Assembly: GCA_016839915.1 (NCBI GenBank)
Contig: JAEOTH010000028.1
Coordinates: 15,433 to 79,432 of the forward strand
Direction: 5' to 3'
DNA from: Promethearchaeota archaeon
Lineage (GTDB): Archaea; Asgardarchaeota; Lokiarchaeia; Sigyniarchaeales; SOKP01
DNA: 64,000 bases
The notes below the pieces were generated by a model. The model was not told the DNA's origin. It did no database searches and saw only the letters and a program-made list of their open reading frames with translations. Shown here piece by piece: positions 21,015 through 57,426 of this stretch (position 1 is its first letter; every line of letters starts with the position of its first letter). Both the position numbers and the translations under genes were made by a program.

Positions 21015-22055
21015 TTATAGTAACTTTATTATAAAATGTGTTTTCTCAATTGAAACTTGGTAATTTCTATCCAGAAAGAATTTGATCAATTCAAGATTAG
21101 TCCTAGTATGATTTGTAACCTCAAGCACTTTTATTTTTGATGGTTCTTTAATAGTTGCCATGAAAGGAATTAATTGATCACTTAAATAATTATCAACCGG
21201 AATCTCTTTTTTGATATATGATATAATTTTATTAGCTGCTATAATTCCAAGGTCTTCTGATGTAATATTTTTTTCTCCGAGTATTGTTCCTGAAGAAATA
21301 ATTGCACCTGTATCTGAGAAAGCCCATAAAGAAAGGCCGACTCCTGGACTTAATGAATTTACATATTTAAAATTAATTCTAACTTCAATTCCTAAATTCT
21401 TATTTAGTTGAAATTCTGCGGATTTTTTAATTCTTTCACACACTTTTTTATTAATTAAATGATTGGTGCTGATAATCTCACCCTGAATTAATTCAACTTT
21501 TCCTAATTTAGTTAAATTAATTGGTTTAATTCTTTTAGGAGGATATATTGTGCATTTAGCAACCGCCCCTCCTTTAGGATAGAAACCATGTTTCAGAATA
21601 TCAATTTCAATGTTAAAACCATGATTCCTAAATATATTGTATGCTACGTGTTGAAGATAATTAAGACTAGGAGCCCATTTTCCAAATGTTCCACCTCCCC
21701 GTATAAAAATTTCAATTTTTTCTGGTTTATTAAAATTTAAACATGCAATTAGGATAGGTTGGAGTAATAATCCAATACTCCCTGCTGTTCCAATTTCAGC
21801 TTCAATATTACTTTTTATTGATTGTTTAGGGGTTAGTGTGATCTCTTTTGTCCCTACTCGACATTCTGACAATGTACTATTTGTTAATCTTGATAGGGTT
21901 TTTAAGCTCATTAAATGCTGGAGTCTCAATCCAGGCTTAGGTCTGTTTGCTCTTATATTTCTAATTCGAATAGGGCGTTGGAATAAAATTGAAAATCCTG
22001 CTCCAATCCTCAGGATTGCACCTCCTCCTTCCCCAAAGGAACCATCAATATCCAA
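21015..22055 (-). CDS. rtcA: RNA 3'-terminal phosphate cyclase
   Basis: DGSFGEGGGAILRIGAGFSILFQRPIRIRNIRANRPKPGLRLQHL. Confidence 0.85.
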   Translation of the reverse strand: MDIDGSFGEGGGAILRIGAGFSILFQRPIRIRNIRANRPKPGLRLQHLMSLKTLSRLTNSTLSECRVGTKEITLTPKQSIKSNIEAEIGTAGSIGLLLQPILIACLNFNKPEKIEIFIRGGGTFGKWAPSLNYLQHVAYNIFRNHGFNIEIDILKHGFYPKGGAVAKCTIYPPKRIKPINLTKLGKVELIQGEIISTNHLINKKVCERIKKSAEFQLNKNLGIEVRINFKYVNSLSPGVGLSLWAFSDTGAIISSGTILGEKNITSEDLGIIAANKIISYIKKEIPVDNYLSDQLIPFMATIKEPSKIKVLEVTNHTRTNLELIKFFLDRNYQVSIEKTHFIIKLL

Positions 22056-28596: not shown

Positions 28597-28689
28597 TGGC
28601 GGCCCTCGAGGGGAATCGAACCCCTATCCCTCCGCAGGATAACTGGGTTTGAAGCCCAGCGTCAGAGACCACTCCAACCGCCAAGGGCC
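28597..28689 (-). tRNA. tRNA-Sec (UCA)
   Basis: 93 nt: 9-bp acceptor, 7-bp D stem with 4-nt loop TGGT, anticodon loop CTTCAAA, long variable arm, 4-bp T stem GGGG-TTCGATT-CCCC, discriminator G and encoded CCA. Confidence 0.9.
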
Positions 28690-43456: not shown

Positions 43457-43477
43457 TTCTATTCACTTTGTAAAATT

Positions 43478-43861
43478 TTAATAAATATAGCATAAAGTGT
43501 GACCACCAATATGCTTTTCTTCTGCTTCACTCATTGTCATAATTCCTTGATTTGTAGTAAGTATTATAATCCCTAAACCAGGTGCGGGTAATAATTTTCT
43601 TTCTAACATTTCATATTGAGATATTTTATAATTTAACCTCATTAATCCTGAACATTCATTAATTTTGCCCAATAAAGCAATTTTGAATTTTCCCTGCCTT
43701 CCATCATCATATCTTTCGAATTCTCCAATATAAGCATGTCTTTGAAAAATTCGAAGAATTTGCTGCAGAACTTTGGAAGCGGGGGTAATCACTAATTCTT
43801 TTTTACGTGCTCTCTCTGCATTTTTAAGTGCGCAACATGCATCAGTTATTGTATTTGTCAT
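43478..43861 (-). CDS. rps8: 30S ribosomal protein S8 (uS8)
   Basis: DACCALKNAERARKKELV..GGHTLCYIY. Confidence 0.9.
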   Translation of the reverse strand: MTNTITDACCALKNAERARKKELVITPASKVLQQILRIFQRHAYIGEFERYDDGRQGKFKIALLGKINECSGLMRLNYKISQYEMLERKLLPAPGLGIIILTTNQGIMTMSEAEEKHIGGHTLCYIY

Positions 43862-52955: not shown

Positions 52956-53208
52956 ATGATCAGCACTTAATTTGAAAAATTTTTATGATTTTAATTGTAT
53001 TTATCTCTTCTATTTATAGATCATCAAATTATTTTATTTATGATCAAGTATCATTAATAGAATGGTTTTAATTTAATCATTTTTTAAAAAGTAATATTAA
53101 ACAAATCTTTTTATATAAAATTAATCTAAATTAAATGAATTAACAACTTAAAAAAAAATAAGGAGTTGAACCACAATCGCAAAAGATAAGTTAATAGGAG
53201 CGATAGTT

Positions 53209-53521
53209 ATGGTGGTTGGTATCCTAATCGCTATCATTTATACTTTAGGTTCTGTCGTAGATCTCTACATGATAAAACTTGGGGGTAGTCCGAGAGGAAT
53301 CGACCTTACTTCAAGCTGGTTTTTTGGAATTGATTTACTTAGTTGGGAACTCTTCGTCGTCTTACCTATGTGGCTTTTAGTAATTTTGATAGCAATTATT
53401 GCTATTTGGATTGGATATAGTATGTTAACCACACCAGCGCCTGTTCCACTCGAAGCTATCTACTGCTTATCGCAGAGATATCGAACAATTGGAAGAGGAA
53501 CTAGCTGCTGAGGAAGAATAA
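53209..53521 (+). CDS. small 2-TM membrane protein with acidic C-terminus, interrupted by 31-nt intron (join 53209..53455,53487..53521)
   Basis: ATG 8 nt after GGAG. Spliced C-terminus ..TTPAPVPLEELEEELAAEEE*; exon sum 282 nt. Confidence 0.6.
53456..53486 (+). other. putative BHB intron in mRNA, 31 nt
   Basis: Central helix TCGA(53450-53453)/TCGA(53481-53484) perfect, bulges AGC and ACA, inner hairpin TATCT(A)CTGC-TTATC-GCAGAGATA; removal gives the required +1 shift. Confidence 0.75.
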
Positions 53522-53527
53522 TAATAA

Positions 53528-53542
53528 TTTTTTTTTTTTTTT
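53528..53542 (+). terminator. T15 tract immediately after the spliced stop codon
   Basis: 15 consecutive T 7 nt after TAA 53519-53521. Confidence 0.4.
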
Positions 53543-53673
53543 CACATTATTTTTATTATTTTGCAACTAAACCCGTACTACTTTAAGATTATATTCTTAA
53601 CCTCTCTTAAAGTAGATTAGAAGAAGTTAGAAGTTTTAGGGAGAAAAAATAAGAAAGAAAATATCGGTGTCGA

Positions 53674-53865
53674 TTATTTATCCATCTCATCTAAGTTTGA
53701 GATCATCTCAATCACTAGCTCAATATATCTCCTAATTGCATCAATGATAAACTCATGATGAGTCCTATATCCTAACTCAGGAATTAGAATTAATATAATA
53801 TCCACCAGTATTTTTGGAACCTGTATATTTTTATATTCTGTTTTTATCTTTTCAGTCAGTTGGAT
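53674..53865 (-). CDS. ribbon-helix-helix (CopG-like) protein, no canonical start
   Basis: Not in ORF track: ..KNIQVPKILVDIILILIPELGYRTHHEFIIDAIRRYIELVIEMISNLDEMDK*; the only canonical start codons are internal (GTG at codons 21 and 51, ATG at codons 54 and 61), all leaving far shorter products. Confidence 0.4.
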   Translation of the reverse strand: MQLTEKIKTEYKNIQVPKILVDIILILIPELGYRTHHEFIIDAIRRYIELVIEMISNLDEMDK

Positions 53866-54116
53866 TCACCCTATTATTCATTATATTCACATACCTTTTT
53901 TGTTATTTCACCTTACAGTTTGTAATTTTTGTTCCATATCATATACCCCATTTTTCAGTACACCCTATCAAGAATCTCTTATATTACTCATTCTTAAAGA
54001 AATAAATGTTTTTCTCATCATTTCTAAGAAATAATCCTGATATTTAAAGAAAAGACCTTTTATGACCTTTTTTAAAAAAAAAGAGTTAGAATTTTTCGCT
54101 TGATTTTTATCAATAA

Positions 54117-55016
54117 TTATAAATTTTTCAAATTATATATAACTCTATTGAGGGTTACCGATTCTCGGTGTGCAAATTGATGAACCACAGAATATTCGTA
54201 TTGTAAAAGGTCGTTTCCATCCTTTAATATAGCCTCATGATCATATACCAATCCATCACCACCATGTGGCCACATCCAAACTATCCACCAAACATCCCCT
54301 CTAATCGTCATCCAATTAATATCACTATATGCGGTAGCATCACTTCTACTATATGGTGTATCTTCACCAGAATTAAGATTTGCAAGAAAACTGGATCCAG
54401 TCATCATTTGTCGATCTTGGTAATTATTTTCCCCTATTAACAATTTGACCAAAGGGTCATCAAAGAAATTTAATAATTCTCTTAAATTAGCTAAATTGAC
54501 GCCTTGGTGTGGAGTAGCAATTGAGCAATAATGCTTAATAGTAATTCCAGCATTTTTTATTGTAGGATAATAATCCTTAATCATGCTTCTAATAACAAGT
54601 CCGCCCATAGAGTGACATACAATATCAAGCTCATCTGCTATAATCCCTTGTTGATGAGCCCAAATTATATAGTTTTTCATATAATATCCAATAGTTCTAA
54701 TACTAGTATCAACAGTTACAGAATTAAATTGAGAAGGATGATCAGCTCTAGAACTATAATATGAGATAGCAACCATATTAGCGCTACCATAATAATCTAT
54801 GAAATCTTGTCTCGCTCTCAGAGTATTCCATGTACTTGCTTGGTCAGACTTTCCATGAATTAATAAGAGTGTTTTCGTTGGGGGCGGGGGTGGGGGAGGA
54901 GCACCGCCGCCACCATCCCCAGGGGTTAGCATTGCTGGCGCAAAAGCAGGTAGAAAAATTCCAACTGTAAACATTAAAATTAAAGTAAATCCTAAAAATT
55001 TTTTTGAGCTTTTCAA
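54117..55016 (-). CDS. secreted alpha/beta hydrolase (lipase/PGAP1-like)
   Basis: Signal peptide, GGGGAPPPPPPP linker, nucleophile elbow CHSMGG. Confidence 0.6.
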   Translation of the reverse strand: MKSSKKFLGFTLILMFTVGIFLPAFAPAMLTPGDGGGGAPPPPPPPTKTLLLIHGKSDQASTWNTLRARQDFIDYYGSANMVAISYYSSRADHPSQFNSVTVDTSIRTIGYYMKNYIIWAHQQGIIADELDIVCHSMGGLVIRSMIKDYYPTIKNAGITIKHYCSIATPHQGVNLANLRELLNFFDDPLVKLLIGENNYQDRQMMTGSSFLANLNSGEDTPYSRSDATAYSDINWMTIRGDVWWIVWMWPHGGDGLVYDHEAILKDGNDLLQYEYSVVHQFAHRESVTLNRVIYNLKNL

Positions 55017-55212
55017 ATTTTTTCACCTTTATAATTTTATAGATATGCCTTAAAAATCAATTTGTAATTAAATTGAATTTCAAATTAATAAATATTCAAC
55101 TTTGCTATATAAATGTTCTTTTATTGTTATTTTGTGGATAAGTTCTAACAATTTAACTTGCCCAACATTCGTTAAATTATTTTATCTCAAATATTCTTCA
55201 TTATCGTAATAA

Positions 55213-55401
55213 TATAGAGGATTTCTATTCACTAAACTTGTTGCGCCTATACTAGGAGATTTAGCATTAACCCCTCAAGCTCAAGAAAAACGACTTACTA
55301 TTAAAGAGGAAACAAACGGTGAATTACTTTGCAAATTTTGTGGTTCCATACTCTCGGAAGGAGAATCAATATGTCACGTGTGTAAAAATAAAATTGAATA
55401 A
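55213..55401 (+). CDS. possible small zinc-ribbon protein, start unresolved
   Basis: Open frame ..LTIKEETNGELLCKFCGSILSEGESICHVCKNKIE*; no ATG/GTG/TTG in frame. Confidence 0.25.
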   Translation, partial: YRGFLFTKLVAPILGDLALTPQAQEKRLTIKEETNGELLCKFCGSILSEGESICHVCKNKIE

Positions 55402-55522
55402 AATTTTAAGTAAAAATAAATATATACAGTTTTGTATAAGTTCATGGATAAGATATTATTATATATAAGAAGAATTTGTTTAAAGATGGTTTATACTCCC
55501 ACATATAAAATTATCGTTTTTG

Positions 55523-55554
55523 GATTAGAAATTTTTATATCAATATATACAGTT
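55523..55554 (+). repeat. promoter-like repeat copy A (GATTAGAAATTTTTA ... AATATATACAGTT)
   Basis: Same two blocks recur at 56661-56699; AATATATACAGTT also at 55419-55431. Confidence 0.5.
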
Positions 55555-55629
55555 CAATAAATCATTTCTCTACCCTCAGATTTATTGTAAAGTTTCTCAT
55601 AATATAGTAACAAAAGTAGGGGTGATAAC

Positions 55630-56043
55630 ATAACGACATTTCAAAAACTGAAAGATGATCTATCGAAATATTTATCAAGTAAGAATCTTGAGGAACATAT
55701 TTCTAATATAATAGGTATTGTTAATAAACATAACAATACGAAGCCTAAACCTATTCTAACTAGTACTAAACCGACTAGGAGGAGAGGCTCGAAAGAGATT
55801 CTATACGAAAATCAATTCTTTATAATCGTGAAAGATTTTCATACGAAAGATAAAATGGATATATGGGTATTAAAATTAAAACGGAAAATCTGGTTAGAAA
55901 AAGATGATTTCTCTGAATTAAAAGAACTCGTTGAATGTTATGACGGATACTATTCAGGATTTTCAGGGGGTTTTATTTTTAAATCCATGCCTATCAAGAG
56001 GATCTTGGAGGAAGTAACAGAATTTCTTGAAAACCTCGTATAA
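55630..56043 (+). CDS. hypothetical protein, probable ATA start (or internal GTG 55828 / ATG)
   Basis: Frame open from 55603; ATA 4 nt after GGGGTGA; ..DIWVLKLKRKIWLEKDDFSELKELVECYDGYYSGFSGGFIF.. Confidence 0.4.
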   Translation: MTTFQKLKDDLSKYLSSKNLEEHISNIIGIVNKHNNTKPKPILTSTKPTRRRGSKEILYENQFFIIVKDFHTKDKMDIWVLKLKRKIWLEKDDFSELKELVECYDGYYSGFSGGFIFKSMPIKRILEEVTEFLENLV

Positions 56044-56063
56044 TAAGTAAGTAAGTTGAATCA

Positions 56064-56279
56064 TCAATCTCGGAGTATTTTTAATGAAACTATATATGCT
56101 ATTAAAAAACCTGCTGCATAAATGAAAATGACTACTGCATTTGTTGCCGCAGAGGTGGGGGAAAAATGGGGATCGGTTATGCCCAACCATAGACCATATA
56201 GCATTATCCATATTGATCCTATAATAGTAAACATAATTGTGAATATTAGCAAAACACCTTTAATAATAGAATGTCTCAT
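56064..56279 (-). CDS. small 2-TM membrane protein
   Basis: 71-aa hydrophobic ORF. Confidence 0.35.
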   Translation of the reverse strand: MRHSIIKGVLLIFTIMFTIIGSIWIMLYGLWLGITDPHFSPTSAATNAVVIFIYAAGFLIAYIVSLKILRD

Positions 56280-56660
56280 TTGAATTTTCCTCTATAACTA
56301 GATAGTATATTTTTGGATATATGTGGATATTGAAATAACTATTTAAGAATTTACCCATAGGATTTTAAGTGTTTGAAAAACAATTTGAAATTTATCAAAA
56401 TCATATTTTTTTTGTTTATAAATATCTATTTCCTTACTTATTAATGTATGAAGGACCTCATAGTACAATTAAAATTTCCTCGCAAAATAACTTTACCATT
56501 GCAAAATAATTGATTCAATAATAAAAAATACTTTGGCATCCAAATATGTAATTAGTGTTTTAATAGGAATTCTTCCGAAAACCTCGTATAATTATTATTT
56601 ATTAAGATTCATCGGTTATGTTGCTTTGATGACACTGATTTTAAAAGTGACAATTTGAGA

Positions 56661-56699
56661 GATTAGAAATTTTTAAAATAAGACTTAATATATACAGTT
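56661..56699 (+). repeat. promoter-like repeat copy B
   Basis: GATTAGAAATTTTTA (56661-56675) and AATATATACAGTT (56687-56699); preceded at 56577-56591 by a copy of the 3' end (GAAAACCTCGTATAA) of ORF 55630..56043. Confidence 0.5.
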
Positions 56700-56728
56700 A
56701 TGTATCATAGTCGATAATGGTAACAAAA

Positions 56729-57085
56729 TTAAATCAGTTTAGCAAAACAATTTCTACAATAGCGTTGGTCTTTTTCTATCGAAATACCACAATTCCAACA
56801 GAAATTTGTATTCAACACCTGCTTAATGGGTATTACATCTTCTGTAATAACCGCAAGTCCCGTATAGATATCAATTAGATCATACCATAATATTTCCCCT
56901 CTCCTGCAAGAAAAATTTATTATTGCATCTGCTCCTATGGTTTTAGCTTTTCTTATCAACCTTTGCATACTTTCTCCTTCTCCTAAATCCTTATAATCCT
57001 TTACTTTGATTTCTCCCAAAACTTCTACAATCTTTTTAGTGGGAATATAATCGGTTTTGGAAACGATCACTTGGAATCCCCCCAT
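56729..57085 (-). CDS. YbjQ/UPF0145-like domain protein with C-terminal zinc ribbon
   Basis: ..AKTIGADAIINF.. and CWNCGISIEKDQRYCRNCFAKL. Confidence 0.5.
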   Translation of the reverse strand: MGGFQVIVSKTDYIPTKKIVEVLGEIKVKDYKDLGEGESMQRLIRKAKTIGADAIINFSCRRGEILWYDLIDIYTGLAVITEDVIPIKQVLNTNFCWNCGISIEKDQRYCRNCFAKLI

Positions 57086-57426
57086 ATTTTCTATGATCTA
57101 TTTATACATATAATGTTTAAAAAAAATAGCTAATAAACTTTTTTTTAATTTAACCTAAACGGTTGAGAGATAAAGAGGAGATTCATCTAAACGGATTTTT
57201 ATCTTTTGGTACTACAACGCCGGAGTCTCAATTATTCTGCAGTTCAATATTTTCTAAGATTGTATCTATATACTGGATATTTTCTTTACCGGCCTCCTCG
57301 ATTAGCTTTTGTGCAAAGAAAACTTTAAAACTCTATGACTAATAAGAAAGATTAATAATAATTATTTTTATTTTTTTTTCCAATTTTAAACATTTCTCTT
57401 CAATTTACCTAATAATTAAATTTCTT

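Follow-up and report, generated by a model that had tools for sequence, protein, structure and literature searches.

Predicted 31-nt bulge-helix-bulge intron near the 3' end of a small Asgard membrane-protein gene

An insertion in the conserved tail of a small membrane-protein gene

The stretch of DNA analyzed here (hereafter, the window) comprises 64,000 nt of contig JAEOTH010000028.1 from a Promethearchaeota archaeon, with a G+C content of 27-33%, and contains a small two-helix membrane-protein gene with a 31-nt segment inserted near its 3' end. That this segment represents a bulge-helix-bulge (BHB) intron was proposed in a sequence-only reading of the same DNA, and the proposal is backed here by an exact indel, the geometry of the predicted cut sites, the restoration of a conserved protein tail and the recurrence of introns in the same gene. 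We consider it likely, at a probability of roughly 0.85, that positions 53456-53486 constitute a 31-nt archaeal BHB intron interrupting the coding sequence of an Asgard two-helix membrane protein that is small and highly conserved. The support for this interpretation is comparative and structural, and from it we infer cleavage by the tRNA-splicing endonuclease (EndA), ligation and splicing in vivo. The elements of the interrupted gene are as follows.

53176-53455, plus strand: exon 1 of the small two-helix membrane-protein gene, delimited from the list of open reading frames (ORFs) and the N-termini of orthologues
53456-53486, plus strand: predicted 31-nt BHB mini-intron, CUAUCUACUGCUUAUCGCAGAGAUAUCGAAC, seen as a gap against three related loci (L001, L002 and L088); its excision restores the conserved tail
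53487-53521, plus strand: exon 2, encoding (E)LEEELAAEEE and the TAA stop codon at 53519-53521, from the sequence and the tails of orthologues
53528-53542, plus strand: T15 tract, read from the sequence, 6 nt past the stop codon of the spliced frame

Without splicing, the ORF at 53209-53511 ends in ..PLEAIYCLSQRYRTIGRGTSC, remains open for 18 further codons and would yield peptides matching ..PLEAIYCLSQRYR, with a basic, cysteine-containing tail. Removal of the intron moves the frame by 1 nt, so that the acidic tail ..PLEELEEELAAEEE replaces ..PLEAIYCLSQRYRTIGRGTSC and the reading frame terminates at the TAA at 53519-53521. Both frame ends were as the sequence-only reading had given them, as was the T15 tract, which is probably an archaeal oligo-T terminator, a role assigned here by inference.

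Comparison with orthologues revealed that only the spliced frame matches the rest of the family. Excision of 53456-53486 results in ...TTPAPVPLEELEEELAAEEE, a motif common to 120/120 of the orthologues listed, all of which present PAPVPLEEL(E/D)EELAAEE (also written ...WIGYSMLTTPAPVPLEEL(E/D)EELAAEE), one of them with a Glu-to-Asp change. The check that the sequence-only reading had set for itself, namely whether orthologues end in an acidic tail or conserve the unspliced C-terminus, hence came out in favor of the acidic tail in all 120 listed. Similarly, the tail is uninterrupted in 79 of 80 Asgard genome loci, 11 of which carry one or two substitutions further along, and the exception (L047) harbors an in-frame insert of 30 nt located, to the nucleotide, where that of the window lies.

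The top-matching protein (P0001) is 97% identical and, with 93 residues, has the length of the spliced product; its gene lies in the same neighborhood as that of the window, together with genes for a PfkB kinase, a cupin and ribosomal proteins S19 and L22. DNA alignment against two syntenic intron-less loci (L001 and L002, approximately 89% DNA identity) produced a single clean 31-nt gap at 53456-53486, and a closer locus (L088, 97% DNA identity) also lacks the 31 nt and encodes a product (P0125) that is one residue off the spliced product of the window. The placement of the gap is fixed because neither G53455 and C53486 nor C53456 and A53487 are matching bases. The exact gap in relatives therefore argues that the insertion is real and that its ends are the BHB cut sites, and the segment predicted for removal in the sequence-only reading equals this indel.

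Predicted structure of the candidate intron

The minimum free energy (MFE) fold of positions 53436-53500 (-22.1 kcal/mol) accounts for 70% of the ensemble and has a z-score of -3.4 against dinucleotide shuffles. It contains the following elements.

53440-53448, plus strand: 5' strands of the exon-exon helix (helix h), CCU at 53440-42 pairing with AGG at 53496-98 and UUCCA at 53444-48 pairing with UGGAA at 53490-94, from the fold
53450-53453, plus strand: 5' strand of the central helix, UCGA in exon 1, forming 4 bp with 53481-53484
53454-53456, plus strand: 5' bulge AGC, 3 nt, with the predicted cut at 53455/53456, which is the left boundary of the indel
53457-53480, plus strand: intron hairpin (helix h'), pairing 53457-61 with 53476-80 and 53463-66 with 53472-75, with A53462 bulged and the loop UUAUC at 53467-71
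53481-53484, plus strand: 3' strand of the central helix, UCGA, intron nucleotides 26-29
53485-53487, plus strand: 3' flank ACA, with the predicted cut at 53486/53487, which is the right boundary of the indel
53490-53498, plus strand: 3' strands of the exon-exon helix, from the fold and the alignment

In the BHB geometry established on pre-tRNAs, the 5' strand runs from the exon helix through the central helix and the bulge into the intron helix, and cleavage takes place after the second nucleotide of each bulge. Application of this rule to the window, cutting after nucleotide 2 of each 3-nt flank, delimits exactly 53456-53486. The central TCGA/TCGA helix (53450-53453 with 53481-53484) and the 9-bp hairpin with a TTATC loop described in the sequence-only reading are both present in the MFE fold, in which the hairpin (9 bp as 5 + 4) directly adjoins the 5' bulge and the central helix. 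Of the two bulges that it had placed beside the central helix, AGC stands as a clean 3-nt bulge and ACA does not, since in the window allele it forms part of a 1x5 internal loop with the unpaired C53449 opposite ACAAU at 53485-53489.

At the first position of the exon-exon helix, the window allele has a C.A mismatch where the four other same-site intron alleles have a C-G pair, and in two of them (L087 and L097) the 3' flank forms a clean 3-nt bulge with C-G closing it. Judged against the strict hBHBh' form, with its two 3-nt bulges, the window allele is canonical on the 5' side only, and it adopts the relaxed HBh'-like form. As modelled, the motif of the window is a relaxed BHB with one canonical half.

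Motif frequency, covariation and frame-specific conservation

A permissive BHB pattern scan of the window (29% G+C) returned 8,611 half-motif hits and 456 hits at the stringency attained by the site at 53456-53486, indicating that the BHB motif alone is uninformative in DNA of this composition. For a specified position and length, the chance rate is approximately 3e-5 under the criteria that the site satisfies and 6e-4 for the loosest half-motif, and the site is significant because the motif coincides with independently defined indel boundaries. Examination of BHB candidates coupled with an ORF-joining test that required at least 40 codons past the junction, and thus misses introns at gene ends, identified no second interrupted gene in the window. 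The other candidates checked on the ORF map, including 43457-43489 and 21723-21756, coincide with gene boundaries or run antisense to real genes.

We aligned the five alleles bearing an intron at the site of the window and imposed the window structure on the alignment. Overall, 85.5% of the cells were paired (86.7% in the exon-exon helix), compared with 29-52% when the 3' partners were slid by 1-3 columns. In the hairpin, seven of the nine pairs have changed on both sides with pairing kept, whereas the UCGA/UCGA central helix is invariant in the five alleles. The covariation score was reached by 0/500 shuffles, a result that, with only five sequences, is supportive rather than conclusive.

The downstream exon points in the same direction. 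Within the 30 nt past the intron, each of the eight variable sites among the five alleles occupies the third position of a codon read in the spliced frame. Pairwise codon differences in this frame comprise 43 synonymous and no nonsynonymous changes, the corresponding counts being 0/39 and 0/43 in the remaining two frames. On this comparison, none of the intron alleles has started to decay. The exon context TTCCACTCGAAGA(A/G)TTGGAA, which is the source of the central and outer helices, is found in approximately 5/85 intron-less loci and in four of the five same-site intron alleles, the fifth (L103) being one base off. Synonymous differences relative to the nearest allele lacking the intron cluster near the intron, with 4 in the 40 flanking nt between the window and L088 (background 2.6%) and 5 in 20 nt between L095 and L089. 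This clustering fits selection for pairing and fits equally well short recombination tracts carrying the intron in or out.

Further predicted introns in the same gene

Additional intron alleles were sought through genome loci, a gapped back-translated pattern scan of metagenomes, and the members of 90%-identity protein clusters together with their DNA. The metagenome scan, which was strict in codon choice and had the intron region fixed, yielded one further intron allele only (L087). Altogether, seven introns of 29-32 nt were identified in six alleles of this gene across Loki-type lineages, distributed over two sites: the site of the window is occupied in four further alleles, a second site, approximately 25 exon nt upstream, is occupied in two, and one allele has both sites occupied. 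The introns found beyond that of the window are the following.

L097: window's site, 31 nt, 19/31 positions identical to the window intron
L103-L105: window's site, 32 nt, in three JGI metagenomes
L099-L102: window's site, 32 nt, in three sequencing runs and one ENA assembly
L087, L095 and L096: window's site, 30 nt, with an unrelated hairpin; the insert of L047 is the same allele
L098: second site, 454-484, 31 nt, falling within the Thr85-Thr86 codons
L099-L102: second site, 825-853 in L099, 29 nt, in the allele with both introns

All seven introns present a 4-bp central helix, UCGA/UCGA at the site of the window and GCUY/GAGU at the second site, and cutting after nucleotide 2 of each 3-nt flank gives WIGYSMLTTPAPVPLEELEEELAAEE.. 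in 7/7. Each intron allele has at least one canonical bulge-helix half. For the second-site intron of L099, the predicted junction is ACU, matching the ACT codon of L103, which lacks that intron. The L087 allele recurs on an 82-kb ENA scaffold (L095), and its product, insert apart, is that of the original Loki's Castle protein KKN35437 (P0122).

Gene callers have mis-annotated several intron-bearing alleles, whose products are recorded as truncated or aberrant (P0124, P0130, P0159, P0208 and P0209), and some are concealed in 90%-identity clusters with intron-less representatives, such as P0124 in the P0001 cluster and P0121 in the P0122 cluster. Searches restricted to cluster representatives therefore miss them, and 90% clustering probably leads to comparable introns in other genes being overlooked. 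The approach followed here, which looks for small indels against close relatives and applies the BHB cut rule to them, is simple and applicable genome-wide.

Alternative explanations

Several observations weigh against the BHB intron interpretation. The motif is relaxed, having on the 3' side of the window allele a 1x5 loop with a C.A mismatch and no clean 3-nt bulge, and L097 and L087 are relaxed on the 5' side instead. BHB-like patterns are plentiful in this AT-rich DNA, and the frame-specific conservation signal is partly inherited from before the gain of the intron. Furthermore, no intron-containing tRNA was detected in the window by ARAGORN, run with and without its intron option, and the window's own allele is found on a single NCBI contig (89,706 nt).

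Among the explanations that dispense with splicing, the 31 nt could be a plain DNA insertion, either a palindrome resembling a miniature inverted-repeat transposable element (MITE) with a TCGAA duplication or a mutational event, leaving a pseudogene or a variant with a basic, cysteine-containing tail. The insert is indeed essentially a hairpin, resembling terminal inverted repeats, it is flanked by the direct repeat TCGAA (CCACTCGAA in L087), its occurrence in some but not others of a set of near-identical alleles would fit a recent insertion, and the region is prone to rearrangement, with a 3.8-kb insertion beginning 57 nt downstream and a segment inverted in another lineage. The direct repeat, however, follows automatically from the pairing of the central helix because TCGA is palindromic, and the apparent target duplications are unequal (5 nt and 9 nt), departing from the fixed length that characterizes MITEs; the repeat model also needs an extra point change in L087, whereas the BHB model needs none. 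The sequence occurs once in the 64 kb searched, with no other copy at three or fewer mismatches. Seven inserts in six alleles obey one cut rule and restore an invariant protein, one allele carrying two inserts in otherwise intact exons, several of the alleles recur in independent samples, the hairpin covaries and the downstream exon varies only synonymously in the spliced frame. Taken with these results, an unspliced insertion is unlikely. An assembly or sequencing artifact, such as a chimera of k-mer size, is harder still to credit: the window allele is known from one assembly and 31 is a common k-mer size, but the insert is not copied from neighboring sequence and has precise BHB geometry, a homologous intron (19/31 identical) occupies the same site in an unrelated JGI sample (L097), and several runs, processed with different assemblers, yielded other introns of the gene.

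Two further explanations concern what happens to the transcript. Regulated partial splicing, in the manner of HAC1/XBP1, would generate a basic-tailed unspliced isoform and an acidic-tailed spliced one; the intron shifts the frame while the unspliced ORF stays open, and the RtcB ligase step would be common to XBP1 splicing. Yet the unspliced products of the different alleles share nothing, with an in-frame 10-residue insert in L087, a stop codon inside the intron in L103 and a long aberrant tail in L099, and the intron is absent from most strains and species. There is therefore no conserved second isoform under selection, and we regard this explanation as quite improbable. Ribosome bypassing of the type known from phage T4 gene 60 could draw on the matched GAA codons located 31 nt apart, with take-off at 53452-54 and landing at 53483-85, and on the hairpin directly after the take-off codon. 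Nonetheless, landing would produce E-Q-L-E-E in the window and E-K-L in L087 where all orthologues have E, three of the five alleles (L097, L103 and L099) present an immediate UAG stop, no stop codon follows the take-off site, unlike in gene 60, and the second site has no matched-codon logic, leaving bypass a negligible prospect. A single +1 or -1 frameshift, in turn, is unable to remove 31 nt.

Distribution and possible origin of the introns

The introns of the window and L097 are homologous, and the L087 intron looks unrelated. The second-site intron of L098 has the apex GC-YUWUC-GC at intron positions 10-18, as in the intron of the window, an apex (GC-N5-GC) that introns at different sites have in common. 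In every intron-bearing lineage the nearest relatives lack the intron, and introns are present or absent among alleles that are identical or near-identical in protein sequence. Such a distribution requires either that introns were gained or transferred repeatedly or that they were lost exactly many times. A tentative possibility, which we rate as doubtful, is that the 29-32-nt BHB mini-introns constitute an actively turning-over, possibly mobile family in Loki-type populations; if true, it would make intron birth tractable in protein-coding genes of the closest archaeal relatives of eukaryotes.

At the site of the window, intron-less mRNA presents the hairpin UUCCA-CUCGAAGAAU-UGGAA, whose loop contains the UCGA palindrome. 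Duplicating this hairpin in tandem would automatically give rise to a BHB whose excision removes exactly one repeat, and it can be speculated that the site is a hot-spot of intron birth through duplication of this exon hairpin. The last 9 nt of the L087 intron copy the end of exon 1. A locus of another lineage, L106, contains at 669-716 a perfect in-frame 24-nt tandem duplication (GTTCCTCTTGAAGAATTAGAAGAA twice, encoding VPLEELEE twice) that spans the intron site of the window. A duplication of this type, folding in a BHB-like manner, may be a route to intron birth.

Proposed mechanism and comparison with known systems

In the proposed mechanism, UCGA of exon 1 (53450-53) would pair in the pre-mRNA with UCGA of the intron (53481-84) to form the 4-bp central helix, with the AGC bulge stacked on the 9-bp intron hairpin and, on the opposite side, ACA adjoining the UUCCA/UGGAA exon-exon helix. 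EndA would then cut after the second nucleotide of each flank, and an RtcB-type ligase would join ...CUCGAAG to AAUUGGAAG...., giving the predicted junction of CCACUCGAAG with AAUUGGAAG, whose downstream side would read AAUUGGAAGAGG. Translation of the spliced product would end in the invariant acidic tail ..PLEELEEELAAEEE. The EndA of Asgard archaea is reported to belong to the (alpha-beta)2 class with an L1 loop, which confers broad specificity, and to cut relaxed motifs (PMC5829648), and hetero-oligomeric endonucleases have been tied to crenarchaeal pre-mRNA splicing (PMC5829648; PMC2738675).

The closest known counterpart resides in the coding sequence of cbf5, which encodes a TruB-family pseudouridine synthase in Crenarchaeota. 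The BHB intron of its pre-mRNA was reportedly described by Watanabe in 2002. Introns of cbf5 measure 16-44 nt, often have a relaxed motif, are sometimes a multiple of three in length, and have been gained and lost (Yokobori 2009; PMC2738675). The introns analyzed here are likewise short (29-32 nt), located in coding sequence and often relaxed in motif; in both cases the frame is kept by some copies and shifted by others, the interruption falls in a conserved, indispensable region of the protein, gain and loss have occurred among related lineages, and the hosts have a hetero-oligomeric endonuclease. In contrast to cbf5, the host gene here encodes a small membrane protein in Asgard archaea of Loki type, and two sites lie within approximately 25 exon nt, with one allele carrying both introns and polymorphism among near-identical alleles; splicing of cbf5 was shown experimentally, whereas the present introns are known from sequence comparison. 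The proposed mechanism is that of cbf5, but the family is a different one.

Non-canonical tRNA introns in the Thermoproteales were reportedly described by Marck and Grosjean in 2003, and Asgard lineages with very many tRNA introns have been documented (PMC11291895). These introns share with the present ones the hBHBh' or relaxed HBh' architecture, the size range and the presumed enzymes. They differ in that the host here is an mRNA, with no tRNA body to aid recognition, and in that excision must be exact to the nucleotide to preserve the reading frame. The BHB intron in the 5' untranslated region (5'-UTR) of the HVO_1309 mRNA of Haloferax volcanii was confirmed in vitro as an endonuclease substrate (PMC7714728). 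As is proposed for the introns reported here, it makes an mRNA the substrate of the archaeal splicing endonuclease, but it lies in an untranslated leader, leaving the protein unaltered, in a euryarchaeal host with an alpha'2 enzyme.

Outside BHB splicing, two other systems invite comparison. The XBP1 intron is 26 nt long, and the introns of HAC1 and XBP1 are cut by IRE1 at twin 7-nt loops as part of a regulated stress response. The likeness resides in a tiny intron, a protein endonuclease, sealing by RtcB and a frame shift that replaces the C-terminus; the difference lies in the recognition by IRE1 of twin 7-nt loops instead of a BHB, and nothing here suggests regulation. We know of no IRE1 in archaea. 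The coding sequence of phage T4 gene 60 contains a short non-coding gap that has a hairpin and is bounded on either end by matched codons. Matched GAA codons and a hairpin are found here as well, but ribosome hopping would alter an invariant residue or meet a stop codon.

According to a paper from 2020, cbf5 carried the only BHB intron reported in archaeal mRNA besides the 5'-UTR intron of HVO_1309 (PMC7714728). We found no report of BHB introns in Asgard protein-coding genes in the full-text literature, the coverage of which is incomplete, so that an earlier description is possible; to our knowledge, this is the first BHB intron in a coding sequence of Asgard archaea. Beyond what is known from cbf5, the present family adds the use of two sites, an allele in which both are occupied, and polymorphism between near-identical alleles. 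Since 2002, protein-mediated BHB splicing in coding sequence had rested on that one crenarchaeal gene, and a second gene family is now added, from the archaea closest to eukaryotes. Its introns, several of them independent or diverged, occupy two sites and are polymorphic for presence and absence among near-identical alleles, which makes the gain and loss of mRNA introns observable at the population level.

The host gene and its product

The first ATG of the gene is at 53209, and the true start is probably AUC at 53176, aligned with the start codon of those orthologues whose sequence begins with MAKDK(I/L)IGAIV. All four differences between the window and L001 within 53176-53208 are synonymous, and across 97 loci the codon aligned with this start is ATG in 46, ATC in 25, ATA in 10, TTG in 9 and ATT in 1. 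The alignment of these starts suggests that the small gene probably initiates at a non-AUG codon. An in-frame TGA lies three codons before the ATC at 53176.

The encoded protein is predicted to have two transmembrane helices, approximately 104 residues and an acidic C-terminal helix, and its AlphaFold model (confidence score, pLDDT, of 83) presents helices at 3-34, 57-85 and 92-105. No significant match was found in Pfam, NCBIfam or PDB sequences, or by Foldseek against PDB. Sub-threshold Pfam similarity was detected to the eukaryotic proteins PIG-P (22/26 family members, best E = 2.5e-5) and DPM2 (20/26 family members, best E = 1.6e-3). The gene has hundreds of relatives, and the named ones are all annotated as Asgard (Promethearchaeota/Lokiarchaeota, Thor-, Hod-, Hermod- and Odinarchaeota).

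Surroundings of the gene

Downstream of the gene, the window contains a segment of approximately 3.8 kb (53544-57343) that its close relatives L001 and L088 lack, although they are collinear with it elsewhere. The segment contains ORFs for a DUF676/PGAP1-like serine esterase (54117-55016, minus strand) and a YbjQ/zinc-ribbon protein (56729-57085, minus strand), with no integrase seen in 53544-57343, and is flanked by imperfect direct repeats of approximately 35-40 nt (53513-53545 and 57345-57385) that include the 3' end of the small gene and the oligo-T tract. In the Loki's Castle-type lineage, comparison of L095 (1316-2122) with L089, L090 and L091 revealed that a segment of approximately 0.8 kb containing the small gene, with inverted repeats of approximately 80-100 nt at its ends, is inverted against its flanks in some assemblies only, reflecting either a real invertible segment or assembly ambiguity.

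A search of the whole window against Rfam at gathering thresholds yielded nothing beyond a selenocysteine tRNA (tRNA-Sec) at 28597-28689 on the minus strand (RF01852, 60.1 bits). It is also the only tRNA detected by ARAGORN in the 64 kb, and its presence indicates a selenocysteine-using Asgard archaeon.

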